DNA of 64,000 nucleotides from a virus. Its lineage: Duplodnaviria; Caudoviricetes. The stretch covers positions 96,001-160,000 of the IMG/VR virus record IMGVR_UViG_3300033067_001757, one strand, 5' to 3'. The notes below the pieces were generated by a model. That model saw nothing but the letters and a program-made list of their open reading frames with translations, made no database searches and was not told the DNA's origin. Both the position numbers and the translations under genes were made by a program. The number at the start of each line of letters is the position of its first letter. Position 1 is the stretch's first letter. Of the stretch, positions 293-64,000 are shown piece after piece.

Positions 293-298
293 CTGATA

Positions 299-2146: not shown

Positions 2147-2168
2147 ATTATAAATTCTAATTTTATAT

Positions 2169-4195: not shown

Positions 4196-4197
4196 TC

Positions 4198-4425
4198 TTA
4201 GCTAGCTTTTAATTGAAAGAATAATAATATGCACATCAACGCGTTATCGACACTTACTCCTTTAGCTGTTGCTGATTGAATATATTGATCAATCGACTCA
4301 TAGGTAGAATTGACCATTGTAAGTAGTCCTTCTTTGGTTTTTTGGCATTCAGGAGTATTAGCATACATTTCACATGCTATCGATGTCAACAGATTATCAA
4401 TCTGACTTTGGTATTGTAGTTCCAT
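4198..4425 (-). CDS. Hypothetical protein
   Basis: 75-aa ORF tightly packed in the operon. Confidence 0.55.
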   Translation of the reverse strand: MELQYQSQIDNLLTSIACEMYANTPECQKTKEGLLTMVNSTYESIDQYIQSATAKGVSVDNALMCILLFFQLKAS

Positions 4426-10105: not shown

Positions 10106-10684
10106 TCAAGCTAAAACTTTTCTATATCGTCCATCGGAACCTTTCTCAATATCCTTTCTTTTACGGAGATTATCACACCTTTCCTGATACTTATCTCGAC
10201 CTTCTTCACCGTAACGTTCAATAAACCAATCCAAAGAAAAGCGACCCTTGGCCTTTTGTTTTTGTAATTCTATAGATTCCGGTCTATGTTTCTTCCCATA
10301 CATTGCATTATTTTCACCACTGCTTAATATACTTTGATTCTTAACGAACTCATAATACTTATCGGTATCGCGTAATCCATCCCAAATATCTCCACCATCT
10401 TCTGTTTGATACATACTATTATATCCTTCTAACACTGAATTATATTCTAATATATATTTCAATTCTTTCGTTATTGCTTCTTCAATTGTATCAGCTTCAT
10501 CAATTATTTCTTTGATCATATTGTCCCAGCCATATTTTCGAATAGCATTATATAAATGCCATTTTACATCTTTGGTAGATCGATATTTATGTGATTTCAT
10601 TCTGTCGTAGAAATCGTTTGTTCTACCGATGTATACCTTACCGTTGGGAGATGTTATCTTATAAATTACAAAATTTGGATTCAT
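10106..10684 (-). mobile_element. Free-standing GIY-YIG homing endonuclease with NUMOD3-like motif
   Basis: VIYKITSPNGKVYIGRT and GENNAMYGKKH; sits between capsid gene and phoH. Confidence 0.85.
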
Positions 10685-10728
10685 AGAATTCGGATTTTTA
10701 TTTTAATTGAGTTTTTAGGAAGAGAGAT

Positions 10729-10760
10729 AAAAAAGAGCAAGACGTAATGCTTGCTCTTAA
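10729..10760 (-). terminator. Intrinsic terminator after major capsid gene
   Basis: Minus strand AAGAGCAAG-cattacgt-CTTGCTCTT followed by a T run. Confidence 0.8.
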
Positions 10761-10780
10761 TTTTATAAGGAAAATTAGGG

Positions 10781-23433: not shown

Positions 23434-24044
23434 TACGTTGTTTTAAGGTAATTCATCAATACACCGCTTATTGTAGCGATATCTATATCGATTTGTTTGA
23501 GATGTTCTTCACTGAGGTTACGGCTATTTTTAAAATCAATACCTACAATACCAATAAACGTATCTTTTATAGTGATTATAGGGAACATATAACTATCAGT
23601 TACACTACCGTCTGACAGAATGTTAGTAATACCATACTTTGAATTTGTATCATTATGAGTATTACTATTTATGTGATTTCCATCGTACAATTTGTTTATA
23701 GTACGACTACATAAGCTTACCGGTAAACCTTGAAACTGATACTGACATGAAGGAAATCCCTCTTTCAATTGTTCATAAACCATGGTAAACTTCTGTATCG
23801 ACTTACCGGTAGGGTAAAAATACCCACCATTATGAAACTGTATAAGCCATACACGGTCAGCATTGTATGAATCTTTGATGTTTTCAAGCTTGTCTATGAC
23901 AAGACTGTTAATTTCCAAAGATTCCTTAAGAGGATCATTTTTCTTATTCTTCTTGGCTTCAAGTCTATTTTTAAATAAATCAATAGAAATAGGGCCAATA
24001 ATTGATGTGATAATGACAACTATTACACTAACAACTAATTCCAT
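23433..24044 (-). CDS. Holin, T4 gpT-like (single TM + GAF-like domain)
   Basis: N-terminal hydrophobic helix, then ADRVWLIQFHNG...FIGIVGIDF GAF-like domain. Confidence 0.6.
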   Translation of the reverse strand: MELVVSVIVVIITSIIGPISIDLFKNRLEAKKNKKNDPLKESLEINSLVIDKLENIKDSYNADRVWLIQFHNGGYFYPTGKSIQKFTMVYEQLKEGFPSCQYQFQGLPVSLCSRTINKLYDGNHINSNTHNDTNSKYGITNILSDGSVTDSYMFPIITIKDTFIGIVGIDFKNSRNLSEEHLKQIDIDIATISGVLMNYLKTT

Positions 24045-24090
24045 GCTAATAAATATCTTTCAAAGATTAAAAATTAATAAATAAAAATAT

Positions 24091-24318
24091 TTATTTCTTC
24101 TTAGTCTCTGCTATTTTTTTAGATTTTACTTTAATGTTAGGTTTAGCACGATCAATTTTAGCAGCGAACTGCTTCTTTGCTGTCTTACCGCGACCCTTAT
24201 CGAGTACTGCAGGCTTGGGTTTTTTGGCTTTAGAGTCAGTAAATTTTTGAGCTACACCGGATTTAGCAGCTTCTTTTAGAGCTTCTTCGAATATTTCTTT
24301 CGCGATTTGTTTTAACAT
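24091..24318 (-). CDS. Small Lys/Ala-rich basic protein (possible DNA-condensing internal protein)
   Basis: Start at MLKQ (24318), downstream of the late motif; very basic. Confidence 0.55.
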   Translation of the reverse strand: MLKQIAKEIFEEALKEAAKSGVAQKFTDSKAKKPKPAVLDKGRGKTAKKQFAAKIDRAKPNIKVKSKKIAETKKK

Positions 24319-24343
24319 TATGTATAAGTTGTATGTATAAATA

Positions 24344-24922
24344 TCATGCAAGGAACCGTTCCTTAACTTCTTGCAGTTCTTTTTTCATAGATTCTACCAA
24401 TTTCTCCATATTAATATCACCATCCAGATCCTGGATATCTCCATTTTCGCATATAACCTGCTCTTTTTGAGATGAAGCCATCGCTTCGATAAATTGCTCC
24501 GCTTCGTAGAAATCAGTCCGCATATTGGCTCTAATGATGTTCTGCATGTATGCTTCATACTTACCTTCACGTTTAAGCTGAGATTCATACTCGGTAACAC
24601 AGTTAAAACAACGCTTATGTATAGGATACATGATTTTATCAAACCTGGTCTTCATAGATCCTTTACATACCGGGCAGGATAATGGTATTCTGAGTAATGC
24701 TTTAACATCATCAAGCTTTGTGAAGGTTTCTTTTAAACCATCTTTGATGGTCCAGGTTCTACCATCTTCTTCCCAGACATCACCTTCGTTGTGATCCGAT
24801 GTGGTTCGCTGGTAACCCACTTGTGAAATAGTAGCATCACCATATTTCTTGGCAACGATATTTCGTATACGTTGTACGTCAGACTCTTTGAAGGTCTTCT
24901 TGAGTAAGGTTTCTTTAGGCAT
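24344..24922 (-). CDS. Hypothetical zinc-finger protein
   Basis: CPVC...CFNC pair; GDVWEEDGRTWTIKDG. Confidence 0.6.
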   Translation of the reverse strand: MPKETLLKKTFKESDVQRIRNIVAKKYGDATISQVGYQRTTSDHNEGDVWEEDGRTWTIKDGLKETFTKLDDVKALLRIPLSCPVCKGSMKTRFDKIMYPIHKRCFNCVTEYESQLKREGKYEAYMQNIIRANMRTDFYEAEQFIEAMASSQKEQVICENGDIQDLDGDINMEKLVESMKKELQEVKERFLA

Positions 24923-24926
24923 GGTT

Positions 24927-25526
24927 CTATACTATATCGAGGTTATGTTTCCAGTAATCCTTATCAAATGATTTGATCACTCTTTCCATTAATTGATTGG
25001 AAGATTCTAGTGGTCCTTCCGCATCAGGTTTTAATATCTCAATTACTGAATTGATTTGATCAGGAGTAAAGCTGGCTGGTAGAAATTTCTTAATTGAGGA
25101 TTCATCTTCCTCAGCTATGGCTTTCAATAAGCCTTTAGAGGATGATTCAAATTGAGAAGGAATTAATTCTATCTTTAAATTGATAAACTTGTCGAAATGC
25201 TTTGTGAATGATTCTTTTCTACCAGAAGCCTCATCAATAGCAATGTAGTATTCATCGGTGGGATGTTTCAACATCTTATTATAAACATACATCAAGGCCG
25301 TGGTATCTTCCGATTGTTCAATGTGTATGTTTGTAGCGAACTCGGAGCTTAATAACATTTTCCATAGATCAGCCTTATCATCCTGTGATATCTGATCAGT
25401 TTGATCTTTACCGAGCACAATAACCACTTCGTAAATATTTTCACGCCTGGTAAGATATTGAGCAGTATTGAGATGTTGAACAACTGGGGGATTAAATTTC
25501 CCGGGAAAAAAACATATACCTTTCAT
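24927..25526 (-). CDS. Cytidylyltransferase-like (HIGH-fold) protein with degenerate motif
   Basis: FFPGKFNPPVVQHL in place of GxFxPxHxGH. Confidence 0.6.
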   Translation of the reverse strand: MKGICFFPGKFNPPVVQHLNTAQYLTRRENIYEVVIVLGKDQTDQISQDDKADLWKMLLSSEFATNIHIEQSEDTTALMYVYNKMLKHPTDEYYIAIDEASGRKESFTKHFDKFINLKIELIPSQFESSSKGLLKAIAEEDESSIKKFLPASFTPDQINSVIEILKPDAEGPLESSNQLMERVIKSFDKDYWKHNLDIV

Positions 25527-51521: not shown

Positions 51522-51555
51522 ACAAATCAACTCAAAACAAAACAAAATAAAGGTC

Positions 51556-52275
51556 ATGAAAACAGGATACAAAGGTACCGATGAGAATATGTATTGTCGC
51601 GGTGCCAAATACGAAATCGGAGTTGATTACAGGAAACCTGAAAAAGAAAATCCAAGATGCTGTACAGCGGATGGATTTCATTATTGTAACAAACTGGTTG
51701 ATGTATTTTCCAGAAAGAGTAATAACGGTAAGAACAGGTTCTTTGAAATAGAGGTACTTGGAAACTTTACAGATTCAAATAGTGAATCTATAACCACGGC
51801 TTTCAGAATAATACGCGAACTTTCTAAAGAAGAGATTATTAAACATATTATAGAAGATAATCTCATGTTGAGCACAGTAAGGAAGTTACAAAATAATAAT
51901 CCTTACGCTATTGTTGCCGGCAGCGTTTCACTATACCTGCAGGGTATTAAACTAAAAAGATTTTCTGAATCCAAAGCGTCTGATATTGATGTTATTCTTC
52001 CTTTCTTTTCTCTGTTTGAAGGAAGTCAGACCGAAAGCAATTTCGAACGAACTAAACCATCTGACAACGACTTTGACTGTGTAGTAACTGTGGATAGTTG
52101 TAAGATTGATATTATAATTAATCCTAAAGAACCATACTCAATAGTGGAACATGATGGGTTTAATTATAAGGTTGCTCGGATTGAAGAGACGCTGAAAGCT
52201 AAACTGAATTACTCGGCTAAGGGTGGTGAAAAGCATAAAAATGACATCATGGAGATGCTGGGTATAAAAAAATAA
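51556..52275 (+). CDS. Two-domain protein: GYKG..CR...GFHYC phage domain fused to a nucleotidyltransferase-like domain
   Basis: N-terminal GYKG...CRG..YEIG...GFHYC...RFFEIE. C-terminal IVAGSVSL...SDIDV Pol-beta-like motif. Confidence 0.6.
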   Translation: MKTGYKGTDENMYCRGAKYEIGVDYRKPEKENPRCCTADGFHYCNKLVDVFSRKSNNGKNRFFEIEVLGNFTDSNSESITTAFRIIRELSKEEIIKHIIEDNLMLSTVRKLQNNNPYAIVAGSVSLYLQGIKLKRFSESKASDIDVILPFFSLFEGSQTESNFERTKPSDNDFDCVVTVDSCKIDIIINPKEPYSIVEHDGFNYKVARIEETLKAKLNYSAKGGEKHKNDIMEMLGIKK

Positions 52276-52291
52276 AAATACAATATAATCT

Positions 52292-53221
52292 ATGAAACTC
52301 CAGGCAATATCAGTCTGCGTAAACTATTCCGATTTCTTCATACATAGTGTCTTAGAAAATAAGAAGCTGTTTGACAAGTGGGTGGTAGTCACAGATAAAA
52401 ATGATATAAATACAGAACAGCTATGTAAAGATCATGGTCTTGTTTGTGTCAAGACTGACGTATTTTATACCCGTGGCATATTCAATAAGTTTGCCGGGAT
52501 TAATGAAGGTCTGGTAGAAATAGACAATGATGCATGGGTATTGTTTCTCGATGCCGATATGGTGTTACACGAACAGACAAGAAGGGTATTAGATTCTTTA
52601 AACCTGGATGAGACTTTTATCTATGGAATGGATAGACTCAACTGTGATGGTATACAGAGATGGAATGAATTTAAACAGAGCCCTGGGATACTCAAAGATT
52701 ATTGGTTATTACATTCAGCAGGTTTAGAATTTGGTGCCAGACTTGTACATCTGTACGGATACGAAAAAGGTGATGGTAAGTTTGCGGGGTGGGGTCCTTT
52801 AGGATTCTTTCAATTGGCTCACAGATCTCAATTTGAATCATATCCAGAAAATAGTTTAGGCGCGGATCATTGTGATTTACTATTCACCAGGCACTGGCCC
52901 CGGGATAAAAGAATGTTGATACCGGAGTTGTATGCTATTCATCTTGAAAGTGAGAATGCCTATAAAGGTATCAACTGGCGTGGAAGAAAATCAGCACCAT
53001 TTGTTGAGCCTGTCATCATACCTGTTGAAGAATCGGTCGTAGAAGAAATATCTCAAGATGAATCGGTACCGTCTACTGTGGTAAACGAAATACCACCCGT
53101 TATAAAAAAAAAGTTTGCCAGGAGACAAGTTTGTAGATGGTTCAAATTGATAGTAAGATTTTTCAAATATTGGTTTTACACCATTACCGGATGGTTTACC
53201 ATTCATCCACCGAAATATTAA
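52292..53221 (+). CDS. GT-A fold glycosyltransferase (GT2-like)
   Basis: SVCVNYSDF, FNKFAGINEGL, WVLFLDADMV (DxD), GFFQL, D..F. Confidence 0.75.
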   Translation: MKLQAISVCVNYSDFFIHSVLENKKLFDKWVVVTDKNDINTEQLCKDHGLVCVKTDVFYTRGIFNKFAGINEGLVEIDNDAWVLFLDADMVLHEQTRRVLDSLNLDETFIYGMDRLNCDGIQRWNEFKQSPGILKDYWLLHSAGLEFGARLVHLYGYEKGDGKFAGWGPLGFFQLAHRSQFESYPENSLGADHCDLLFTRHWPRDKRMLIPELYAIHLESENAYKGINWRGRKSAPFVEPVIIPVEESVVEEISQDESVPSTVVNEIPPVIKKKFARRQVCRWFKLIVRFFKYWFYTITGWFTIHPPKY

Positions 53222-53264
53222 AAATAAAAGTTATGACATTTGATATTGAAGGATTTAAAATAAA

Positions 53265-53296
53265 TTTGGAGAACTTATTTAAGTTCTATAATTTTG
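53265..53296 (+). promoter_or_regulatory. Bacteroidota sigma70-type promoter with inverted repeat in the spacer
   Basis: TTTG-N20-TAATTTTG; AGAACTT-attt-AAGTTCT at 53270-53287. Confidence 0.75.
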
Positions 53297-53316
53297 TTGT
53301 ATAATAAATAAAGGTT

Positions 53317-53802
53317 ATGGTAATAGCTGTTACGGGACACCGCCCGGACAAACTTGGTCGTGAGTACAACATGAAAGGTCCTTACTCAGAGTATATCTCT
53401 AACGAATTCGATAAGATAATAGAGGCTTATAAACCGGAAGCCGGTATATCCGGAATGGCCTTGGGAGTTGACACCTTGTGGGCCATATCTTGCCTCTACC
53501 ACAATATTCCTCTTATAGCAGCGGTACCATTCGAAGGTCAGGAATCAGCCTGGCCAAAGAGTTCCCAGAGGGTTTACAGACAGATATTAGATCATAATGA
53601 AACCCAAGTAGTGTATGTATGCGAACCAGGTTATGAAGCGTGGAAAATGCAGCGACGCAATGTTTGGATGATCGATCATGGTGATATATTGGTGGCTGTA
53701 TGGGATGGTTCGTCCGGTGGTACCGGGAATTGTGTAAAAGCTGCAGAGAAAGTCAAAAAGGAGATCATCCGTATTGATCCAAGGTTAGCGGTTAAATATT
53801 AA
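53317..53802 (+). CDS. SLOG-family (YspA/DUF1273-like) protein
   Basis: AVTGHRP, SGMALGVD, RRN..MID, AVWDGSSGGT motifs. Confidence 0.85.
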   Translation: MVIAVTGHRPDKLGREYNMKGPYSEYISNEFDKIIEAYKPEAGISGMALGVDTLWAISCLYHNIPLIAAVPFEGQESAWPKSSQRVYRQILDHNETQVVYVCEPGYEAWKMQRRNVWMIDHGDILVAVWDGSSGGTGNCVKAAEKVKKEIIRIDPRLAVKY

Positions 53803-53822
53803 ATAAAACACAAATAAAGGTC

Positions 53823-54641
53823 ATGAACAAACTCGATAAACAAGATTTATCCTTCGCGGTATCACGTCTTCCATCCGAACTGAAAAAGATAATGAAGCTA
53901 CCAGAATGGCAAAATGCCATCTACGTTGGTGGTGGATACATCCGAGCTGTGGTATCTGGAGAAAAGATCAATGACATTGACATCTTTGTTAAGAGTAAGA
54001 AGGATGGAGAGTTACTGGCTTTGAAGCTTGCTGATATCAATAAGGTCAAAGTGCATACATCAGACAATGCTTTTACTGTAAAGACCAGACCGATAGCCAT
54101 CCAGATCATTCACCGCTGGGTCTTCGATAAACCAGAAGACGTTGCAAACAGCTTTGACTTTACTATATGCTGCGGAGTAATATACTTCAATAATAATCAA
54201 TGGAACTCATTCACCGATGAACGATTCTACCAGGATCTCGCTGGTAAGCGTTTGGTCTACCGTCAGCCAATAAGAAATGAAGATAATGGTGGATCACTGC
54301 TCAGGGTCCTGAAATACTACCAGAGAGGCTACCGCATTCCTCTCGATTCACTCGGTGCTGTTATAGCCCGACTCTTGAAAGATATCAAACCAGAAGCAGT
54401 AAACATGACGTGTGAATCTGATGTAGCCAGGGTGATCACAGGATTACTCCGTGTAGTCGATCCGCTTGTCGATCCGACCCATGAAGCTCATCTGCCGGCG
54501 CAGGATGTAACGATGAGTAGTGAAGAAGACCTGCAGCTTCTTGAAGAAGAAATAGTACCGGAACATATCAAAAAAGCTCTGGCTCACTCTAAAACAGAGA
54601 ATGAAATTGTGTATCGAGAACGTAATGAAATCGCAGAATAA
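53823..54641 (+). CDS. Nucleotidyltransferase (poly(A) polymerase/CCA head-like)
   Basis: VGGGYIR...NDIDIF, FDFTIC and RVLKY..RGY motifs. Confidence 0.8.
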   Translation: MNKLDKQDLSFAVSRLPSELKKIMKLPEWQNAIYVGGGYIRAVVSGEKINDIDIFVKSKKDGELLALKLADINKVKVHTSDNAFTVKTRPIAIQIIHRWVFDKPEDVANSFDFTICCGVIYFNNNQWNSFTDERFYQDLAGKRLVYRQPIRNEDNGGSLLRVLKYYQRGYRIPLDSLGAVIARLLKDIKPEAVNMTCESDVARVITGLLRVVDPLVDPTHEAHLPAQDVTMSSEEDLQLLEEEIVPEHIKKALAHSKTENEIVYRERNEIAE

Positions 54642-54664
54642 ACAATAAAAACAAAATAAAGGTT

Positions 54665-55516
54665 ATGATCAAAGACGTATTCGTTTTAAGTAAGAATGCA
54701 TGGCATTCAAAACTCATGAAGTACATATGGAATTTAAACTACAGAGACTTCTCTCACATGTGTCCGTATTTCTGGCTTAGTGTGTTTAATGTTATTGCGT
54801 TTGTTCCGGTATTTATAGGGAAGAGTGTGATAGGTAAAATATTTACATATTCTCGTTCCCGGTTTGGCGATTATTTGGAGAAAAAAGAAAAACAATGGGC
54901 TCTGGATTATATTGAAAAATTGAAAAATGATCCAAAAGAACTTGTAAAATTATCCAGATTATCAACTAAGAAATACAACGATATTTTGTATTATAGGAAT
55001 TTAAATTTCAGTTCACTTGGAAGTAATTTTTGGAAAGAACTTTATCGTCTAAGAGATTCGTATAATGATGAATTGAGTGAAAAATATGAGATAAAATCTT
55101 ATCGTAAGGAAGAAAAAAGTCTGACCAATAAAGAACGAATCAATAAACTACTAAAAGTTGTTAAGCCTATATCAAAGGCCATCCTTTACATAATATCTGC
55201 AGCAGGTTTGTTCGGTGTAGGTATGTTACTAATGTATCTTTTTATTTTACTCGCAGGAATACCTGGTTCAGATTGGTTGAATTTTGCAACCGTAATCGGA
55301 TATTGTATAGTTGCAATAATATGTTTTTTACTTCTTTGCGGTGGAATCTATCTCATTAAAGAACATATCAATGAAAATATTAAGAATGGTTTCGTTACAT
55401 TCTTTTCTACAATAGCGCAATCAATTGGATGGTTAGTTAAAAAAATAATCGGCGCTGTATCATTCCTGGTAATGATGCTTAAAGATAGCTGCCCGGCTAT
55501 AAATTGGAAAGATTAA
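54665..55516 (+). CDS. Membrane protein, hypothetical
   Basis: Several hydrophobic helices; CPYFW and CPAI.W ends. Confidence 0.65.
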   Translation: MIKDVFVLSKNAWHSKLMKYIWNLNYRDFSHMCPYFWLSVFNVIAFVPVFIGKSVIGKIFTYSRSRFGDYLEKKEKQWALDYIEKLKNDPKELVKLSRLSTKKYNDILYYRNLNFSSLGSNFWKELYRLRDSYNDELSEKYEIKSYRKEEKSLTNKERINKLLKVVKPISKAILYIISAAGLFGVGMLLMYLFILLAGIPGSDWLNFATVIGYCIVAIICFLLLCGGIYLIKEHINENIKNGFVTFFSTIAQSIGWLVKKIIGAVSFLVMMLKDSCPAINWKD

Positions 55517-55521
55517 ATTTT

Positions 55522-55722
55522 ATGACACTAAACAGTATAGCAGAATGGTACTTTATCTTAGGTATCATCACAACAATTATCGGAGTATACCGTGGCCTGA
55601 GAAATAAACAGACAGTAGAACCAGATGAACTCACTGTATTCAGTTGGTTTATTCTATGGTGGATATGGTTACCCTGGCTCGGGTACCGGTTGTTTGTGAC
55701 TAAAATTTTAAAGAAAGCTTGA
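55522..55722 (+). CDS. Small membrane protein
   Basis: Two hydrophobic segments; ATG at 55522. Confidence 0.55.
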   Translation: MTLNSIAEWYFILGIITTIIGVYRGLRNKQTVEPDELTVFSWFILWWIWLPWLGYRLFVTKILKKA

Positions 55723-55723
55723 T

Positions 55724-56011
55724 ATGAAAAAGTACTTAGCTTATCGCGATGTTGACCCTGAAGGTGACGCCTGGTCTGAAAACAGTTTCCTGTTTCAAAA
55801 CGAAGAAGATGTTGCAAACTTCTTTAAAGAAGATAATCCGGACCTGATTGACATTTATACAGACGAGGATGACCGGCAAATATTCAATTTTGAAGTTACA
55901 AAAAGTAACAGTGGACGAATAAGCTGTGTATCATTCAATACTCAGTATGCAGGTGAGGTAATGATTGTTGAAATGTATGGAGGGTATTTGATAAAACGAA
56001 TTAATTTATGA
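55724..56011 (+). CDS. Hypothetical acidic protein
   Basis: 95-aa ORF in operon. Confidence 0.55.
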   Translation: MKKYLAYRDVDPEGDAWSENSFLFQNEEDVANFFKEDNPDLIDIYTDEDDRQIFNFEVTKSNSGRISCVSFNTQYAGEVMIVEMYGGYLIKRINL

Positions 56012-56337
56012 GCACAGTAACAGTAAACGGACGAACATTCGTGCATAACGGAAGTATTTCAATATCCAATGGAAAGATTATCGTTAATGGTAAAGATGTC
56101 ACACCGGAATCTAAAAATATAAACATCATTGTAAACGGGAATATTGATCACATAAAGGTTGATAGTTGTGATCATGTAACTGTTACCGGCAACGCAGAAA
56201 GCGTTGAAACAATGAGTGGTGACATCAATATCAACGGTGATGTGAATGGATTTGTAAAATCTATGTCCGGAGATATAAAATGTGGTCATGTATCCGGTAA
56301 AGTTTCTACAATGTCTGGAGACATAAAGAATAAATAA
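56008..56337 (+). CDS. Beta-solenoid protein (DUF4097-like repeats)
   Basis: Three V.(T/S)MSGDI repeats. Confidence 0.65.
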   Translation: MSTVTVNGRTFVHNGSISISNGKIIVNGKDVTPESKNINIIVNGNIDHIKVDSCDHVTVTGNAESVETMSGDININGDVNGFVKSMSGDIKCGHVSGKVSTMSGDIKNK

Positions 56338-56338
56338 T

Positions 56339-56701
56339 ATGACGTTCAACTCAATAATAAGTTACTTACCATCAAGCCGGGATAGAACATACGTTACGAT
56401 AGATCAAATCGAGGAAGAGTTTCCAGATTTCATCGACAAAATAGAAGAAATTTATACCGATTCAGATTATAGTTCAGTTTCTAAGAATATCGCCAAAGGA
56501 GTATGTAGTCAGCTTGAAATATGGGAGAATATATCCTGGAAACAGTTCGATATGATCATGAATATGTATAAGACTCCACCGAGAAGGAATAAAAGAGGTT
56601 CAAGTTCTAATAGATCGTTTGGGTGGGATTTCCCTACTGGCAATGAAAAAATGGAAGATTATGTTCATTTCGGTATAAACTTTAAAGGATTGAGTATATA
56701 A
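56339..56701 (+). CDS. Hypothetical protein
   Basis: 120-aa ORF in operon. Confidence 0.55.
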   Translation: MTFNSIISYLPSSRDRTYVTIDQIEEEFPDFIDKIEEIYTDSDYSSVSKNIAKGVCSQLEIWENISWKQFDMIMNMYKTPPRRNKRGSSSNRSFGWDFPTGNEKMEDYVHFGINFKGLSI

Positions 56702-56712
56702 TCGACCTGATT

Positions 56713-56883
56713 ATGAGCAGAAAAGATGATGTTTTCTTTAGTTTTCCATCAATAATATTCACAAAATGTACCAATACGCTCACAAAAGAGGCTAAAAAGA
56801 CCTTCAAATGTGAGTGGGATAAGTACTATACCGTAACATTTGCCTGGCTGTTTTGGGCCTATACAATAGAATATACACCGTAA
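56713..56883 (+). CDS. Small hypothetical protein (56 aa, not in ORF track)
   Basis: Hand translation MSRKDDVFFSFPSIIF...FAWLFWAYTIEYTP fills the operon gap. Confidence 0.5.
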   Translation: MSRKDDVFFSFPSIIFTKCTNTLTKEAKKTFKCEWDKYYTVTFAWLFWAYTIEYTP

Positions 56884-56893
56884 AACTTTTAAT

Positions 56894-57130
56894 ATGTCAC
56901 CAATATTTTTTTATTTTCTCGGATTTATAATTTCTTATGTCTCAGGTAAGCTATTAAGAAATTACACTAAAGAAAACGAATGGGAAGATGTACGTATGAC
57001 GCTTTTATTAGCAATATTCAGTTGGGTAGGATTTATATGTATTTTACTAGCATCGATCGCGATACTGTTACAACCTGTATTAAAAAAGTTCCGCATTAAA
57101 TATTCAGATAAACCACCAAAATGGTTATGA
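56894..57130 (+). CDS. Small membrane protein
   Basis: Two TM helices; ends KPPKWL. Confidence 0.6.
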   Translation: MSPIFFYFLGFIISYVSGKLLRNYTKENEWEDVRMTLLLAIFSWVGFICILLASIAILLQPVLKKFRIKYSDKPPKWL

Positions 57131-57540
57131 CCAACGCCCACCTATTTCTCGATGATGTTCGTATGCCAATTGATGTAGAGAAGTACATTAATCCGGTAGA
57201 ATTAAGACCACTTTACCGGTTAAAGCCGTGGATTATAGTAAGAAACTATCGGGAATTTACTGAATATATAAAAAAGAATGGTCTACCAGGTACTATTTCA
57301 TTTGACCACGACCTGGGCGAAGATGAGGCTGAAAGTATGGTTTCTGAAGGTATATCCAAGAGAAAGGCCCGGGAACACAAGAAAACAGTTAAATCCGGAT
57401 ACGATTGTGCTAAGTGGCTTGTAGATTATGTTATTGAGAACGAATTAATACTACCAGACATCTTATGTCATAGTATGAATCCGGTAGGTAAGGAAAATAT
57501 CCTGATGTTATTTGAAAATTATAAACGATTTATGATATGA
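57127..57540 (+). CDS. Cyclic-phosphate-processing receiver-domain protein
   Basis: LFLDDVR.P, VRNY.EF, ISFDHDLG, GYDCAKWL and HSMNPVG..NI motifs. Confidence 0.8.
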   Translation: MTNAHLFLDDVRMPIDVEKYINPVELRPLYRLKPWIIVRNYREFTEYIKKNGLPGTISFDHDLGEDEAESMVSEGISKRKAREHKKTVKSGYDCAKWLVDYVIENELILPDILCHSMNPVGKENILMLFENYKRFMI

Positions 57541-57570
57541 CTGTCCGTTTTTAAGATCCAATACCCAGGA

Positions 57571-57600
57571 GCCCGGTGGAACATTCCATCCGGGTTTTTT
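57571..57600 (+). terminator. Intrinsic terminator between convergent genes
   Basis: GCCCGG-TGGA-acat-TCCA-t-CCGGGT followed by a T run. Confidence 0.75.
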
Positions 57601-57601
57601 A

Positions 57602-57985
57602 CTACCACGCCCTGCAGGACCAGTATCTTGCTTTAGTACGCGGTCCCGGATCTTTACAGTTATGTCTGGCCCTGAATGAAGCTCTTCGTTCCGGGTTGTT
57701 CTTTTTAATATTCATTCCCTTCTGACCAAAGTTGACTTTTACAACTTTACCAGTAGCAGGGTTCTTTACATATACCTTAAACTTTTTTACATCACCCTGC
57801 ATACGTTTACCTAATTGTACAGTATGTCCCTGGTATTCAGCTTCCAACAATGACGGATCAGTAATTTCTTTTAATTGTTGCTTATACTCCTTTATAAACT
57901 CGGTGAACTCTTGTATGTCATAAATATTTTCAAGATCATATTCATCGATACCGTCATCCTTTTTGTTCGAACATTGGCTACTCAT
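57602..57985 (-). CDS. Small basic phage protein (KVNFG...SFRARH.C...YWSC..W family), late gene
   Basis: Conserved C-terminal motif; acidic leader ending LLE; late motif at 58000-58009. Confidence 0.7.
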   Translation of the reverse strand: MSSQCSNKKDDGIDEYDLENIYDIQEFTEFIKEYKQQLKEITDPSLLEAEYQGHTVQLGKRMQGDVKKFKVYVKNPATGKVVKVNFGQKGMNIKKNNPERRASFRARHNCKDPGPRTKARYWSCRAW

Positions 57986-58585
57986 ATTAATATTTTGTAT
58001 ATAAATATGGCTGGTGTCCGTTACGGACTTTAGTTGTATATACAAATATCTATTAGACTGGTATGATCTGCAGGGTTTTCTTCTACACTAATTTTGCCGG
58101 ACAGAATTTTTTCTGAAAACAGAATTTCCATTCAGAGAACTTCTGTACACGAATTTACCCCATTTTAAGCCCCATACGGGCCTGTTTTTGTTTATTGATA
58201 TGAATGTACCGGAGCTTTGCTTTGCGGTCAATGGTGCCGGGATAACGCTTAAATGGACACAATGTCCATATTATTGTCCAGGTACGGTGATGGAAATATC
58301 TGTCATTAAGTCGTTACTTTAGGGTTAATGAATGAATAAGCCGTCATTATCTAACTTATTGATATATACGTATATATTGAAGGGTTACCGTGGAACGGGC
58401 GGTGAAGTGTAAACGAACCTGCCCACTCCCCTACCTGGTTAAAGTTTTGTTAAGGTACAATAATTAACACTTTTTTTAGAAATAAAATAGTAAAGAAAAA
58501 TTTTAACATTTCATTTGAAAATAATTTATTATAGAACTTTTGAGATACCTAGTAAGATTTCATTAACAAATTTTTAACAGTTAAC

Positions 58586-58618
58586 TTTGTTCGGCTATCA
58601 AATAAAGTTCTACATTGC
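58586..58618 (+). promoter_or_regulatory. Host-type early promoter
   Basis: TTTG-N21-TACATTGC, with AAGTTC immediately before the -7 element as in the other rightward promoters. Confidence 0.6.
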
Positions 58619-58639
58619 ACTATCAAATTTTATTAACCG

Positions 58640-58669
58640 TTCTGCATCTCACAACAATAAGATGCAGGA
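58640..58669 (+). promoter_or_regulatory. 5'-UTR hairpin with CACAACAATA loop
   Basis: 10-bp stem TTCTGCATCT/AGATGCAGGA. Confidence 0.7.
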
Positions 58670-58684
58670 CACAAAACAAAAGTT

Positions 58685-59266
58685 ATGAAACAGGAAATTA
58701 AAGTTAGGTTGGTAGGTAAAAATGTAAAGCAGCATACCATAACTAACGAAGGTTCAGTAAGTGTAAACAGGCAGGTTACTGATATTGCAGTTCTGCTTTG
58801 TTTAGATGCAACCCAATTTGAAAAGCTGCCAAAAGTTGAGGTTGTTTACAATGGTGTAACACATTCTTTCAACATGGTGAAAGATGCCGCAAAATTATCT
58901 TTCACTTTGTTGCTCGAAATTGGTAAGGTATTGTTTTCTAATGTTACCACTTTTGAAGGTCGTACGGAACAAAGCAGTAACCCTATTGCATTAGCAATAC
59001 TTGTACCTTTTAAGTACAAGGAAAAAACCGTGTCATATGAAGCATACACTAAAGCCATTAGTGTAAAGTTTTCCGGTCTCAAAACATTGGTTAAACACGA
59101 GCAAAACAAAGCAGCTTTTTTAGATACTGCTTTTAATGCTACTGTTTCTATTGCCAAAATTGCGAATAGCGAATATTCAAAAATCGCTAAAGGTGCAAAG
59201 GAAATTGCCGCTAAAGGTTATGCTGCTGCCATTGCTGCAAACCGTTTGCCCGTTGCTACTGCTTAA
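58685..59266 (+). CDS. Hypothetical early protein (193 aa)
   Basis: Clean ORF with AAAAGTT-ATG initiation context; no recognisable family. Confidence 0.75.
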   Translation: MKQEIKVRLVGKNVKQHTITNEGSVSVNRQVTDIAVLLCLDATQFEKLPKVEVVYNGVTHSFNMVKDAAKLSFTLLLEIGKVLFSNVTTFEGRTEQSSNPIALAILVPFKYKEKTVSYEAYTKAISVKFSGLKTLVKHEQNKAAFLDTAFNATVSIAKIANSEYSKIAKGAKEIAAKGYAAAIAANRLPVATA

Positions 59267-59274
59267 TTTTTGAT

Positions 59275-59449
59275 AGGGTTACAATACAACAATTTTGCAG
59301 CCCTTAATTAGTTATTAGTTAGCGTTTATTGTGAGTATGGTTTGAACTTGTGCAATACAACAATTTTGCAGCAAGTTGTTAAACGCTCTTTTACATAGTT
59401 TGTTTATAGTCTAATTTAAGATGCCGCAATACAACAATTTTGCAATGGC
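59275..59449 (+). repeat. Three hairpins sharing CAATACAACAATTTTGCA (loop TACAACAATT)
   Basis: Exact 18-mer at 59282, 59353 and 59427; flanks differ but base-pair in each copy. Confidence 0.85.
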
Positions 59450-59649
59450 TTTATACTGTTTACATTGTACATATCTTTTACAAAAATTAAAGGTAAAGTA
59501 CACTAAAAAATGTTTATAGTAAACTCGAAAGTAAACGATAACAAACAGGTATGTACTAAATTTGTGCAGCTATCTTTTTTGAATAGCGGGAGCAATACAT
59601 TAAAACAATTATGTACCCGTGAAAAAAATTTAAACTACTGCGTAAACTA

Positions 59650-60465
59650 AACTTCCGTTCCTTCATGTTTCTACATGGTGTATCATATAACGGATTGATG
59701 TTTACAAAGTGATAAGGTTTAAATCGTGTGTATCCCAGTACGCACATTCATAAAACATTAGCTTAATCAATAACAGCACAAACGTACATAAGGCCATCGT
59801 GATACTGTTGATCAGGTAAGAGGTATGTCTATACCCAGCCAGGGATACGTGTGTACATTCGTGTGCCCATACTCCCACTTGTGCTACCTGGAACGGTCAT
59901 AAAGCATCTACCTTAAATGGTTGGTTTTGTAGTTTGATGCTTACACGTTTACATGAAAACTACACCAAAGCGGGTACGCATACGCTGAGGATACCGGATG
60001 AGTCCGGATAATATATGCCCATGAACGAATTGTTATACTTAGCATTCGCATGGATCAAAACTATAAGTAAGTACATTCACTACCGGAACCATGTACAGTA
60101 CACCAGGTTAACCGGTTCAACGTCCGCGGCATCATGTGCTTCGGCGCTTTTGTTATATCCCAACATAAATGACAACCATCGTTAAGCAGTATAATTCACA
60201 GGCAATTGCGTAAGCCCTGTACTTAAAATCGTAAGTCTTAGCACATACAGTCATACTCGGGATCAATGGGCAACGACGTAGCTATCCCCCTCACGGGTTT
60301 GGTTAGGAGCTTCGTATGGCTCCCCCATTGCGGCAGGTAAGGTAAACATGTGTAAACCGGTAACCAACCCGTTACATGCATAAGCCCTTACCAAATCAAC
60401 CGGTTGCGTAATACCTGTCCCTTCATAGACAGTTAGATAGACTCGCAGTCTGTCCCGGTTGCTAA
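59650..60465 (+). ncRNA. Candidate large structured non-coding RNA
   Basis: No credible ORF, raised GC, multiple nested stems (see findings); boundaries approximate. Confidence 0.4.
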
Positions 60466-60480
60466 CTAAAAATTAAGGTT

Positions 60481-60603
60481 ATGCGACATCTAAAACTGTA
60501 CAGGCAAATCAGGTTATGGGAACTGAAGATAACTAAAATGAGTTCTCTGCATAAGGTAATGTGGAAAGCTGAATGGTTTAAGCACAGGCAAGCGATACAG
60601 TAA
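60481..60603 (+). CDS. Small basic protein (40 aa, not in ORF track)
   Basis: AATTAAGGTT-ATG; MRHLKLYRQIRLWELKITKMSSLHKVMWKAEWFKHRQAIQ. Confidence 0.5.
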   Translation: MRHLKLYRQIRLWELKITKMSSLHKVMWKAEWFKHRQAIQ

Positions 60604-60688
60604 GTTATCTTCCTTTCAGACGTACATACATATCAAAACAACATTCACGGGCTTAAATCGCCTTAAAATCGCTAAATCAATAAAGGTC

Positions 60689-60811
60689 ATGTACATTCTC
60701 ATAGTTCCGGTACTGGCAGCCATTAAGATTATACTTGTTATCCTGCAGAATCCAAAGGTAGATTTGGAATCAGGTAATTATGATGTTCTGCCAAGTAATA
60801 TACCGGTGTAA
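60689..60811 (+). CDS. Small membrane protein (40 aa, not in ORF track)
   Basis: AATAAAGGTC-ATG; MYILIVPVLAAIKIILVILQNPKV... Confidence 0.55.
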   Translation: MYILIVPVLAAIKIILVILQNPKVDLESGNYDVLPSNIPV

Positions 60812-60835
60812 TCAAAAAACAAATAAAGGTCATGT

Positions 60836-60869
60836 AAGGAATGTTGGCTTAGGTTGGCATTCCTTTTTT
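60836..60869 (+). terminator. Intrinsic terminator
   Basis: AAGGAATG...CATTCCTT followed by TTTT. Confidence 0.7.
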
Positions 60870-60922
60870 ACTTCACATTCAATCACTTCAATAAAACGCC
60901 CGTATCCGGGTAAAGAAAGGTC

Positions 60923-61186
60923 ATGGAAAGAGCAATTGTAATCCCGATGCCAACAGTACTTGGCAAGATAGACTTAAACGCAATCAACCAGCGTGAGCAA
61001 CAGGCTAAGAAGGCCAAACGTGTGTTCATTAATGAATCTCGTGAGAAGGCTGAGGAATTTAATGAAACCTTGGACCGAAAGAAGAAACAGGAAAACCTTC
61101 ACAAAGACCTGCAAAGAGCTTTCTCACGCAGACCTGGTGCCACTGTTACAGATGATCATGGCCATCTGGTGATCAAATTAAGTTAA
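60923..61186 (+). CDS. Hypothetical protein
   Basis: AAAGGTC-ATG; 87 aa, VLGKIDL motif. Confidence 0.65.
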   Translation: MERAIVIPMPTVLGKIDLNAINQREQQAKKAKRVFINESREKAEEFNETLDRKKKQENLHKDLQRAFSRRPGATVTDDHGHLVIKLS

Positions 61187-61307
61187 ATGCCCTACAGGGC
61201 ACTTTTCCACTCGGTCCCGGTACTACTCGTAACTGATATAGGCCGGGGCTATTCTATTAAACGTCCGTTACGGACAATTAAAACGCCCTTATAGGGCAAT
61301 TAAGATC

Positions 61308-61718
61308 ATGGAAACAGGTACAGTATTAAACCAGCAAGAGTTATTCCTACTCGTTAAACAGGAAGCTGAGAACTTAAAAGTACATGCTACACAGGAAGAG
61401 CTGTCTAATTTGAGTTTTGATAAATTGGGTCCTTTAAACGCTGATGCATGTGTATACGGATTGATGACTGGTTGTTGTTACAGTACAAGAGCTACTGAAC
61501 TTATAAACTTATGCTGCGAAAGAGTTATAAGTGATGATTCTGGTGTAAGCAGCAGCAGAGTATTGAATAGATCACCAAAGACATCAATCAGAACGTCATA
61601 CTGGTCACCAATAGAAGTTTACATTGCTCAGGAAGGACAGTTGATTAGTAACAACAAATCCCTCATATCCTTTCTTAAGTCCGAAACAGATACTCTAACC
61701 TTTAACGAAGCTATATGA
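61308..61718 (+). CDS. Hypothetical protein
   Basis: 136 aa, CVYGLMTG.C motif. Confidence 0.65.
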   Translation: METGTVLNQQELFLLVKQEAENLKVHATQEELSNLSFDKLGPLNADACVYGLMTGCCYSTRATELINLCCERVISDDSGVSSSRVLNRSPKTSIRTSYWSPIEVYIAQEGQLISNNKSLISFLKSETDTLTFNEAI

Positions 61719-61870
61719 ACCACATCACACTCCTTCAGGCACAAAACAGGATCAACTACTTAAACGGTATAATCTCCATTCTTGGTACCCGGTTGGCTCA
61801 TAAATACGTATTGGAACTTGACAACCTGGTTGCATACATCGAAACACTTAACTGGGAGCTTGGCTATTGA
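61715..61870 (+). CDS. Small hypothetical protein (51 aa, not in ORF track)
   Basis: ATGA overlap with the previous gene; MNHITLLQAQNRINYLNG...WELGY. Confidence 0.55.
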   Translation: MNHITLLQAQNRINYLNGIISILGTRLAHKYVLELDNLVAYIETLNWELGY

Positions 61871-61910
61871 AGAAATCCGGTCAGTATTCGAAGCAAACCG
61901 TAGGATGGTT

Positions 61911-61941
61911 GAGGGCATTAGCTTTCAGCCCTCTTGTTTTT
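61911..61941 (+). terminator. Probable intrinsic terminator
   Basis: GAGGGC...GCCCTC followed by TTGTTTTT. Confidence 0.55.
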
Positions 61942-62355
61942 CGGTAAAAAAGCATTAATGAAGCGTTTTGGTATTAACATTTCATTAGCACTGTTTTATT
62001 TGTTAATATATATCCAATTTTTATGGATTTATTTGGTGGTTTGCACGGGAGGGGCAGCTTCCCTCCCATCCGGTCGGTCGCACCCTACGGGGTATGTTAT
62101 GATTTGTAGACCTGTTATTCCATAAATGTTATTTGTATATACAAATGTTTCCCACTTTTTACCACAAAATCCCACATAGGTATGGTTTATAGTATGTTTG
62201 TATATACAAATATAATAGTTCTTCAACATTTCGTACACACTCGTTAGCATCGTTCCAACAAGTTCAGAATAATATTTGTTTAGCCCCGGCTCCCGATGCT
62301 CCGGGACATATCACCTTATTACACTCACCTTTTAAATACCCGTAATGGGATTTCA

Positions 62356-62559
62356 ATGAATCACTTTGAACATAAAATGTATACTTCCCTTCGCAGTCAG
62401 GGTATTGAACAGGAAATTGCCGCTAAGTCATCTTCTTTATTGTTGGCAGTATTGGCAAATGTTGCTATGATCAGGGAAGATGGGAAGCCTTGTGTGTTTA
62501 TTGGTATCTCGGATGTAGATATTGAAAAGATAATTAAGGCTTTACAATCTTTAAAATAA
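62356..62559 (+). CDS. Hypothetical protein
   Basis: Start taken at MNHF (62356); the track start at 62296 is also possible. Confidence 0.55.
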   Translation: MNHFEHKMYTSLRSQGIEQEIAAKSSSLLLAVLANVAMIREDGKPCVFIGISDVDIEKIIKALQSLK

Positions 62560-62566
62560 TCTCAGT

Positions 62567-62899
62567 ATGCAAGAGATACATTCATATGATTGCAGTAAGC
62601 AATGTACAGGATTATACATTGATGTGAACGGAACAGGCAGAGAATACAATGTATTACTTTTAGTACAGGCTTATTCCAAACGTAGCCGGAAAGGAAAGAT
62701 TGTTGTATCTACCAAACCATTCCCGGATTGTATTAAAGTAAAACGTGAAGATTGGGAAAGAGATATAAAGCATTATAATATCGTTGATTGGAATAATTAT
62801 ATCTGGCCGGTTTTTAATACTGCTCATATCACTCTTGCTTTTACCAGGTTTAAAAATAAGAAATTGTATATCCGTGTAATTCCTAATACTAAATCGTAA
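62567..62899 (+). CDS. Hypothetical protein
   Basis: 110-aa ORF in operon. Confidence 0.55.
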   Translation: MQEIHSYDCSKQCTGLYIDVNGTGREYNVLLLVQAYSKRSRKGKIVVSTKPFPDCIKVKREDWERDIKHYNIVDWNNYIWPVFNTAHITLAFTRFKNKKLYIRVIPNTKS

Positions 62900-63282
62900 T
62901 GAATATGCAAATCATAACTCTTTCCAATGGTAAACGTGTTGCTAACTTCAGCAGCCCACATCCTTTTGTTTTTACAGATGGTAGTATTTTACCAGGTGTA
63001 TCAGAACGAGATGCTTTGTGGTATGCTGTTACCTTTATAGAAGACGATCTTGGTAATGGTGATATCAAACTTACATTTGATATTACAGATGCTATATGGA
63101 ATCTTATGATCAGATGGAATGAAGCGTGGGGAGCTAAAGAAGTCGATGTTGTATTCTGTCCTTTACCGATGATCATCGCTTTACATAATTGGGGATACAA
63201 TGTCCGTAACAGTCCTTTCAGATGTATCCGTATTGAAGATCGTATTAATAAACTCGTTTCAATTGATAAACAAACACTTTAA
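62899..63282 (+). CDS. Hypothetical protein
   Basis: 127 aa, RVANFSSPHPF.FTDGS; coupled start/stop. Confidence 0.65.
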   Translation: MNMQIITLSNGKRVANFSSPHPFVFTDGSILPGVSERDALWYAVTFIEDDLGNGDIKLTFDITDAIWNLMIRWNEAWGAKEVDVVFCPLPMIIALHNWGYNVRNSPFRCIRIEDRINKLVSIDKQTL

Positions 63283-63294
63283 ATCATTATTGTT

Positions 63295-63540
63295 ATGAAA
63301 GCTCTTGCCTGTTTTGGAAAAATAATATCTCCTTACTTTGCGTCTCACAATACACCGGAACAGATATTGTATTGGTTTCAGATTAACTTTTATTCATGTT
63401 TATCTGTCAATGAACCTTCCAGTTGTACCTTTGAGTTAGATGAGAGTAAAGAATATATTCTCATATATGGTGATGAGGATCATATTGAGATAAATATGAT
63501 GAATATTGTCGCGGTTGACCTTGATTTAAATCCTTATTAA
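63295..63540 (+). CDS. Hypothetical protein
   Basis: 81-aa ORF in operon. Confidence 0.5.
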   Translation: MKALACFGKIISPYFASHNTPEQILYWFQINFYSCLSVNEPSSCTFELDESKEYILIYGDEDHIEINMMNIVAVDLDLNPY

Positions 63541-63563
63541 ACAAACATTTTAAAATAAATACA

Positions 63564-63851
63564 ATGACACAAGAACGAATCAATAAGTATTTCCAATCTT
63601 CACTGGGCCAACAGTTGGATATTCTTTATTCAACATCTGATGACAGAGTATTCATCCGTTATCACGAAGAAGCTGTAAAGCATACAGAAGGTTTACTCGA
63701 TCACGGAACAGCACCGCTGGTAGACAAGACTATTGAAACCTGGTATCCCGAAGAAGATGATGAAGAAAACGAAAGGAACCTCATGAGAGAAGAGTCTAAG
63801 CGCAGGACCTTAACCGAAGATGAAAGGATTATTTATAATATTTTCGATTAA
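63564..63851 (+). CDS. Hypothetical protein
   Basis: 95-aa ORF in operon. Confidence 0.55.
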   Translation: MTQERINKYFQSSLGQQLDILYSTSDDRVFIRYHEEAVKHTEGLLDHGTAPLVDKTIETWYPEEDDEENERNLMREESKRRTLTEDERIIYNIFD

Positions 63852-63868
63852 CAAATAAAATAAAGTTT

Positions 63869-64000
63869 ATGACACAACCAACAATGTTAACATTTAACAA
63901 CAACGCTGAATTAAAATCAGAGCTATTATCAAAATTGAAACATCATCAGGAACTTGATACCTTCATACAAGGTACATGGTTAACTGATGAGAAGGTTGAA
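63869..64000 (+). CDS. Partial hypothetical protein (runs off window)
   Basis: AATAAAGTTT-ATG; MTQPTMLTFNNNAELKSELLSKLKHHQELDTFIQGTW... Confidence 0.6.
   Translation, partial: MTQPTMLTFNNNAELKSELLSKLKHHQELDTFIQGTWLTDEKVE

Follow-up and report, generated by a model that had tools for sequence, protein, structure and literature searches.

A conserved, structured non-coding tract within an exchangeable gene cassette of a T4-like phage

The DNA considered here (the window) comprises 64,000 nucleotides (nt), bases 96001-160000 of a 187-kb phage record in IMG/VR (IMGVR_UViG_3300033067_001757). The capsid, portal and terminase genes of this phage are of the T4 type, and the nearest match of its capsid protein is found in Flavobacterium phage vB_FspM_immuto (47.5% identity). 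Between an orphan gene encoding a protein of 193 amino acids (aa) and a variable slot for small genes lies a tract without genes, of which a sequence-only reading, made by a model, had singled out positions 59650-60465 as a candidate large non-coding RNA (ncRNA) with a pseudoknot. Here we describe how the tract compares with its relatives, outline the exchangeable cassette to which most of it belongs, and discuss what the element may do.

All genes at 50-64 kb of the window lie on the + strand, and many of them begin with a start motif, ATAAAGGTCATG, the orientation of which tracks gene direction throughout the genome. According to the annotation of a relative, a Gad2-type gene and a YpsA/DprA-like gene are located a few kb upstream of the tract, the Gad2-type anti-defence gene at a distance of 5 kb. 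Given these two genes, the uniform + strand orientation and the start motif, the surroundings of the tract are an early or accessory region. Open reading frames (ORFs) of at least 60 aa are absent from 59267-60922 under translation table 11, and recoding of TAG as glutamine, TGA as tryptophan or TAA as glutamine opens no long frame in the tract, which bears out the earlier statement that it harbours no credible ORF. At 1656 nt, the gap is the longest stretch of the genome without ORFs of at least 70 aa. The higher GC content noted before was also confirmed and amounts to 0.40-0.47 over 59650-60549, compared to 0.29-0.36 directly upstream and a genome mean of 0.367. This equals the level of the phage’s transfer RNA (tRNA) arrays, and the other long gaps with a GC content above 0.41 are tRNA arrays. 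No tRNA gene is present within the window, and 17 tRNA genes are found more than 125 kb away. Two further stretches without ORFs of at least 70 aa, at genome positions 23900-24973 (1074 nt) and 10212-11153 (942 nt), are AT-rich (GC 0.28-0.30) and thereby unlike the tract.

Searches of IMG/VR with the flanking and capsid proteins retrieved only distant phages (at most 52% protein identity), none of them syntenic. The metagenome contigs used for comparison were reached via relatives of the downstream 136-aa protein, which are 55-78% identical, and via a spurious 59-aa ORF called inside the tract. They comprise loci of type A (L129, L133, L136 and L142), which carry the same cassette as the window, and loci of type B (L130-132 and L141), which carry another one. 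In addition, L137 and L139 are identical to the window, and L138 is 96.5% identical overall. The alignment termed A2 consists of six sequences. Bases 1-29 of L133, an ENA contig, resemble a sequencing adapter (CTTCCCTACACGACGCTCTTCCGATCT) and yielded no phage alignment; as a contig-end artefact they were omitted from A2.

Homology between the window and the type-A relatives extends from the 193-aa gene to 60331, ends there in every relative and resumes at 60598-60623. Within 59501-60150 the four type-A loci are 87-97% identical to the window (75% for L136 in the 5' half), and the flanking coding genes, at 76-85%, fall below the tract. Sixteen blocks of 12-35 nt, adding up to 338 nt, are invariant. 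No ORF is open in all lineages, L136 harbours frameshifting insertions and deletions, and in the sole recurrent ORF, at 59510, the variable sites are distributed 8/9/7 over the codon positions. The variable stretches of the tract are hairpin stems that have been altered on both sides.

Covariation was assessed in several ways. RNAalifold predicted 255 base pairs, 44 of them with a compensatory change. In a strand-neutral set of helices, made up of the 125 pairs common to the predictions for the two strands, both partners have changed in 32 pairs. None of 500 shuffles attained this number (14.4 +/- 2.5), and slid controls yielded 0-5. Since this first structure came from the alignment itself, the test was redone on a structure obtained from the window sequence alone. 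Here, 66 of the 84 doubly changed cells still pair, versus 47 of 124 in slid controls (Fisher 8e-9, where the cells are phylogenetically non-independent and the slid controls are ones pairing in the window), and for each single change there are 0.69 double changes, compared to 0.17 in the controls. Within 59650-60331, 25 compensatory pairs stand against 1-6 in controls. When folded one by one, the lineages form the same hairpins from different sequences, as exemplified by H13, H18 and H19 (Table 1). Most of the tract is, to judge from these paired substitutions, under selection for base-pairing. The comparison of homologues that the sequence-only reading had proposed thus came out in favour of structure, with compensatory changes above shuffles and slid controls.

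Viewed as a single sequence, the tract is inconspicuous. The minimum free energy (MFE) of the whole tract has a z-score of -0.24 on the + strand and +0.28 on the - strand, which is about chance, and the description “highly foldable” does not apply; an energy no better than that of shuffles was an outcome that the sequence-only reading itself had named as contrary to its proposal. All helices it had listed were found at the coordinates given for them. The tract contains 12 perfect 7-bp stems, a number attained by 26 of 300 dinucleotide shuffles (6.8 +/- 3.2), and within 59650-60331 the count is 7 versus 5.8; the helices read from one sequence, on which the earlier proposal was based, do not exceed chance. 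Only two 150-nt segments stand out, 59600-59749 (z -3.7) and 60350-60499 (z -3.3). In terms of method, a near-zero folding z-score did not exclude a conserved structure, and homologues alone settled the matter.

Table 1. Features at the locus, in window coordinates
Feature	Position	Strand	Remarks
193-aa orphan gene, cassette A	58685..59266	+	ORF; upstream partner of the tract
Hairpin array	59267..59620	+	UACAACAAU-like loops on differing stems at 59282, 59353, 59427, 59475 and 59596; continuous with the tract
Conserved structured non-coding tract, cassette A	59380..60158	+	Conservation, no conserved ORF, covariation
Multi-branch domain	59627..59725	+	Closing helices 59627-59647 / 59700-59725; nested hairpins 59654-59694 and 59664-59677
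Hairpin H13	59726..59745	+	4 compensatory pairs; unrelated stem sequence at the same place in L136
Hairpin 59822-59835 and branched hairpin 59838-59884	59822..59884	+	Compensatory pairs (A2 columns in the text)
Pseudoknot region (possible)	59902..59963	+	AAGCATC 59902-59908 / GATGCTT 59936-59942, crossing GTAGTTT 59929-59935 / AAACTAC 59957-59963; inner helix 59910-59921
Hairpin CCGGA-UGAG-UCCGG	59994..60007	+	Invariant in 6 of 6 sequences, within a 31-nt invariant block
Hairpin H18	60019..60053	+	4 compensatory pairs; alike fold in all lineages from two different sequences
Hairpin H19	60082..60116	+	2 compensatory pairs; closing stem kept
Terminator-like hairpin 60121-60146 with U-rich tail CUUUUGUUAUAU	60121..60158	+	Right-hand edge of cassette A
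Module common to cassettes A and B	60159..60331	+	94-97% identical in type-B loci L130 and L141
-35-like aTGACA (TTGACA in relatives), 15 nt, TATAAT	60169-60174, 60190-60195	+	Within module 60159..60331
Leader three-way junction	60264-60330	+	CAATGGG/CCCATTG closing a variable arm and an invariant GGAGC/GCTCC hairpin
Lineage-specific structured insert	60332..60462	+	131 nt; TTGC at both flanks
40-codon ORF	60481..60603	+	Lies in the variable gene slot behind the tract; sequence around the start, ATTAAGGTTATG, is similar to the motif ATAAAGGTCATG

The structured elements begin directly behind the 193-aa gene with an array of hairpins, six of which in cassette A share the UACAACAAU loop. The repeats recur at intervals of about 72 nt with 72% similarity, and their stems differ. 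These stems covary: at A2 columns 111-128 all 4 pairs are compensatory, with four different stems, and columns 59-76 and 233-252 covary as well (alignment-shuffle z -5.3). The earlier statement that the tract lies directly downstream of the array holds insofar as the two adjoin; the start at 59650 does not, as the structured part begins upstream and is continuous with the array. A literature search for the loop motif returned primers and small interfering RNAs only. The reverse complement of the shared loop is presumably similar to the binding consensus of T4 RegA; this idea was dropped, as the resemblance is on the wrong strand and the hint from a protein atlas reached only 0.81. No RegA homologue was found in the genome, a weak negative given that the control genomes of this search were also unmatched.

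Within the multi-branch domain, 9 pairs of helices 7-12 show compensatory change, and the same hairpins appear in 4 of 5 single-lineage folds. Further downstream, compensatory pairs in 59822-59884 occupy A2 columns 486/497, 503/544, 505/542, 506/541 and 518/527, and the inner stem of the branched hairpin is swapped in L136 for another stem that also pairs. A pseudoknot at 59902-59963 is possible, as judged from the two arms of the proposed crossing. The arm TGTAGTTT/AAACTACA gains support from two compensatory pairs, both in L129, and the inner helix 15 switches from AU to GC in 3 of 6 sequences. The AAGCATC/GATGCTT arm is invariant in the alignment and hence neither supported nor refuted by it; L136 carries a 16-nt insertion within its loop, and the MFE fold of L136 itself uses this helix, which lends it mild support. 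In H19, the interior is replaced in L133 and an extra inner hairpin is present in L142. The hairpin at 60121-60146 (-10.7 kcal/mol) has 2 compensatory pairs in its upper stem and, together with its tail, would act as a terminator.

A Bacteroidota-type -7 promoter box (TAAATTTG) is located at 59557-59564, in a block of 19 invariant nt within the tract. This box may signal that an RNA starts internally near 59570; alternatively, it may be one strand of an invariant long-range helix, 59551-59567 / 59776-59789. Another Bacteroidota-type box, TAnnTTTG, is found at 58582.

The tract is inherited as part of a cassette. Between a left boundary at about 58581/58634 and a right boundary at 60132/60140, the latter inside the terminator-like hairpin, no sequence is common to type A and the type-B loci (L130-132 and L141). 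Because homology is absent between these boundaries, the exchangeable unit measures about 1.5 kb and comprises the 193-aa gene together with the tract. The 193-aa ORF is a real gene, since protein identity to its relatives (91-92%) exceeds nucleotide identity (84-85%). Its product is the sole one of its kind among 5.8 billion proteins and gave no match to Pfam, PHROG or PADLOC. Cassette B instead contains an unrelated gene of 229-249 aa, followed by 1.1-1.4 kb without genes. The non-coding tract of cassette B is itself structured, as L130 and L141 (88.5% identical) differ by 10 compensatory pairs, compared to 0-1 in controls. A second copy of the tract in the genome, or homology between the A and B tracts, was not found. 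In its arrangement, cassette A looks like one transcription unit.

The near-identical contig L138 offers a side view on these exchanges. Compared over 58988-62055, it is 100% identical to the window at 59501-60480 and 98-100% identical in the downstream genes, whereas identity drops to 82-85% across the hairpin array and the 193-aa gene. Such a pattern points to a recent recombination joint near 59500, within the cassette.

To the right of cassette A, the two cassette types share a module (60159-60331), which is the joint where cassettes recombine. The TTGACA-like hexamer of this module is present in all sequences, and TATAAT occurs in one of two subtypes, being missing in L129, L136 and L141. 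Sigma-70-like sites show no enrichment in the region, where 6 were found and 9.0 expected. The three-way junction adopts the same fold in every relative, and its variable arm covaries. About 10-15 nt behind the junction, a canonical gene start follows in the relatives, leading into a variable small gene of 65, 115 or 52 aa. The module is single-copy: in the 187-kb genome, one hit was obtained with an nhmmer profile built on the tract and one with a covariance model for the leader. By its layout, the module looks like a structured 5' leader for the next variable small gene preceded by a putative promoter.

In the window, the junction is followed by a lineage-specific insert, which is found only here, in the identical contig L137 and in L138, and is absent in L129, L133 and L136. 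It contains three of the helix pairs listed in the sequence-only reading, in the form of a GGTAAGG/CCTTACC hairpin and CAACCGG/CCGGTTG around two hairpins, and its fold reaches -40 kcal/mol (local z -3.3). No other copy exists in the genome or the fetched loci. The insert sits in the leader of the 40-codon ORF at 60481. The TTGC flanks (60328-60462) resemble a target duplication or a microhomology join.

Which molecule and which strand form these helices was approached from several sides. The orientation of the genes and their start motifs, a U-tailed hairpin on the + strand and the alignment energy (-180.6 versus -175.1) favour the + strand, as does the alignment-based z in 59525-59737. The many different nested helices and the raised GC content argue for RNA rather than a DNA site. 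Taken together, the element is probably an RNA of the + strand.

Our preferred interpretation, to which we assign a probability of roughly 0.55, is that 59380-60158 encodes a conserved multi-hairpin ncRNA of about 0.8 kb on the + strand, which forms a unit with cassette A and acts with its protein. The proposed unit would run from a promoter region through the 193-aa orphan gene, the shared-loop hairpin array and the structured tract to the terminator-like hairpin, such that about 1.5 kb would be transcribed as one unit, with the tract as its 3' two-thirds. This RNA may form an extended, structured 3' region within the mRNA or be released from it by processing as a stable molecule, and may serve as a scaffold or partner of the cassette’s protein early in infection. 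A ribonucleoprotein (RNP) function is the most likely one, we infer, because the RNA and its protein change hands only as a pair, some 1 kb of structured RNA is retained in each allele, and the loop motif recurs six times in cassette A. The candidate large ncRNA of the sequence-only reading accordingly survives in altered form: a conserved, non-coding and structured element of the RNA type is supported at 59380-60331 by conservation and compensatory changes, and it is not one unit. Rather, the region consists of the 3' portion of a putative cassette RNA, the end of which would lie near 60158, the shared module (60159-60331) and the insert (60332-60462), which would lie in the leader of the next small gene.

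Several observations weigh against this interpretation. A further measure, the number of pair types, is not above shuffles (44 versus 42.9), and thermodynamic stability is ordinary, with a whole-tract z of about 0. The central part, 59738-60040, is near-invariant, and for this reason covariation says little about it; its alignment-based z is only -0.8 to -1.4. Five lineages were compared, all 75-97% identical and with mosaic sequences, and therefore the compensatory cells are not independent events. Covariation is symmetric between the strands, and as it is blind to strand, a molecule of the - strand or single-stranded DNA could also account for it. At -6.8 to -10.7 kcal/mol, the terminator-like hairpin is weak, and a consensus scanner does not list it. 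The hairpins with the shared loop lie upstream of the coordinates first proposed, and cassette B has no such array. The AlphaFold model of the 193-aa protein is unusable (predicted local distance difference test score of 40) and displays no recognisable fold, and the case for an RNP is one of co-inheritance.

The main rival holds that the sequence acts only in cis, as an extended, structured 3' untranslated region that insulates transcription or protects the cassette mRNA against 3' exonucleases, plus a structured 5' leader that adjusts how stable the next gene’s message is or how well it is translated, with no separate RNA product and no partner in trans. The position of the tract between a gene and a terminator-like hairpin of the same cassette agrees with this proposal, as do the three-way junction placed 10-15 nt before the next gene’s start in the relatives and the simple, local nature of many of the stem-loops. 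Yet simple protective hairpins would have no need for about 340 strictly invariant nt, much of it unpaired in the RNAalifold model, nor for a total of about 0.8 kb including a multi-branch domain with covarying closing helices, and some 1 kb of such sequence is retained in either cassette allele. We regard a purely cis-acting role as doubtful.

An element acting at the level of DNA, such as a replication origin or a recombination hot spot in which DNA hairpins, cruciforms or protein-binding sites are conserved, is improbable. It would fit the strand-symmetric covariation and the clustering of homology breakpoints at 60132/60140, 60331 and 60598-60623, and gene shuffling at elements composed of a promoter and a stem-loop is known from T4-type phages (PMC2839356). 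However, more than 20 different helices extend over 0.9 kb, some of them nested or medium-range, iterons and an AT-rich unwinding region are lacking, the GC content is raised and not lowered, and in the helices common to both strand models, 13 G-U cells fall on the + strand compared to 6 on the - strand.

Neutral intergenic DNA or a decaying gene remnant with chance helices is largely refuted and very improbable. Single-sequence statistics at chance level would be expected under this explanation, and in L130 and L133 a 143-aa ORF (from 60267) was called that reaches into the tract’s 3' end; but the tract is more conserved than the flanking genes, its paired sites change together, and the 143-aa ORF, the frame of which is shut after 8 codons in L129, is an over-extension of a 115-aa gene that starts after the tract at the canonical motif. 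Finally, a cluster of tiny genes or another genetic code is scarcely credible: ORFs of 46 aa (59510-59650) and 56 aa (60015-60185) are present in a phage with many small genes, and a 59-aa ORF was called in L129, L133 and L142, yet none is kept in all lineages given the frameshifts in L136, the 8/9/7 spread over codon positions is even, the start motif is absent from all of these ORFs, and recoding opens nothing.

Database searches bear out that the tract cannot be assigned to an Rfam family. With gathering scores, cmscan found no match to Rfam in the whole window, and the covariance models also gave no match on six related loci; at E values up to 10, 59200-61000 produced one chance match to a small nucleolar RNA (E = 2). 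The models of group I and group II introns had no match at this threshold. An intron was rejected, as the tract is bordered by the intact end of one gene (stop at 59266) and the start of another rather than by two parts of a single gene. The tract was unmatched by blastn against a collection of GenBank phages, and scans of viral, metagenome and genome contigs with exact patterns of the invariant blocks recovered only L133 again. As for antisense targets of these blocks in the phage genome, 12-mer matches occur at about the number expected by chance, by our own estimate.

Large structured ncRNAs comprise few known classes, among which unusual roles recur, such as ribozymes and RNA-only cages. 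The GOLLD and ROOL RNAs are usually found in Lactobacillales or rumen (pro)phages, often beside tRNA genes. Both are large, ornate ncRNAs that are often encoded in (pro)phages (PMC12286853). The tract resembles them in being phage-borne, non-coding and several hundred nt long, and in combining covarying helices with strongly conserved unpaired stretches. It differs in that neither the tract nor its relatives match an Rfam model, in its location in a T4-like lytic phage, the closest cultured relatives of which infect Flavobacterium, without adjacent tRNA genes, and in its co-inheritance with a protein gene in a swappable cassette that is documented in five close lineages only.

The right-hand edge of the cassette recalls another class of phage element. 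PeSLs are composite elements that unite an early promoter with a stem-loop (terminator) and that bring about modular shuffling in T4-type phages (PMC2839356, PMC4122927); they are short, number about 50 copies per genome and are concentrated in hyperplastic regions (PMC2839356). The segment 60121-60200, with its terminator-like stem-loop and sigma-70-like hexamers amid small orphan genes, may be a composite of this type, and the exchange boundary of cassettes A and B falls within it, with further breakpoints at 60331 and 60598-60623. In contrast to PeSLs, the module is single-copy and hence not a repeated family, its -10 hexamer is restricted to one of two subtypes, and such elements leave 0.8 kb of conserved structure upstream unexplained.

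RNAs with repeated motifs that partner with proteins include the sponges CrcZ, RsmZ and CsrB, as well as the ToxI-type antitoxins of type III toxin-antitoxin systems. ToxI-like antitoxins consist of tandem, near-identical repeats of about 34-45 nt beside a gene for a ToxN/AbiQ-type endoribonuclease. Cassette A resembles these systems, as a loop motif is displayed on six hairpins of one presumed transcript that is linked to a single protein gene. Unlike ToxI, its repeats are hairpins with a period of about 72 nt and different stems, not near-identical tandem units, and the 193-aa protein matches no ToxN, AbiQ or other defence model. Also unlike protein-partner RNAs, 59650-60158 harbours no repeated motif, and the array is confined to cassette A.

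The locus provides a candidate RNA of about 0.8 kb from little-studied T4-like phages with Flavobacterium-infecting relatives, for which Rfam holds no family, and it features a second cassette allele that is unrelated in sequence yet also structured. Tentatively, the interchangeable cassettes at this early-region site, each with an orphan protein and its own structured RNA of about 1 kb, may constitute a new class of phage RNP modules in this clade of T4-like phages, perhaps serving host takeover or, in view of the Gad2-type anti-defence gene 5 kb upstream, counter-defence. If true, this would establish a new family of large structured RNAs, comparable in size to GOLLD and ROOL. If confirmed, the system would make available a transcript that is well defined, a possible protein partner and naturally occurring allelic variants, with which the role of the RNA in infection could be probed.

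Some minor observations concern the wider surroundings. The type-B locus L141, a 26-kb contig from the European Nucleotide Archive, carries genes of the IS1595 transposase type, the phage integrase type and a Laminin_G/toxin-receptor-binding-like type at 1-4389, upstream of syntenic early genes; these three are absent at the corresponding place in the phage of the window. The start motif ATAAAGGTCATG, with the start codon at its end, occurs in 41 copies with at most one mismatch (window 51547-63871 and genome-wide). It is always located on the coding strand of the respective region, namely the - strand at genome positions below 96 kb and the + strand at those above 147 kb, and sits too near the ATG for a Shine-Dalgarno role. 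At 60823-60875 of the window, the motif is directly followed by ATG TAA, a one-codon “gene”, and then by a 13-bp hairpin with a run of T. A second copy of this ATG-TAA arrangement, with the same motif and a hairpin behind it, is found in the non-coding tract of cassette B, in L130 (at about 5255-5275) and in L141.

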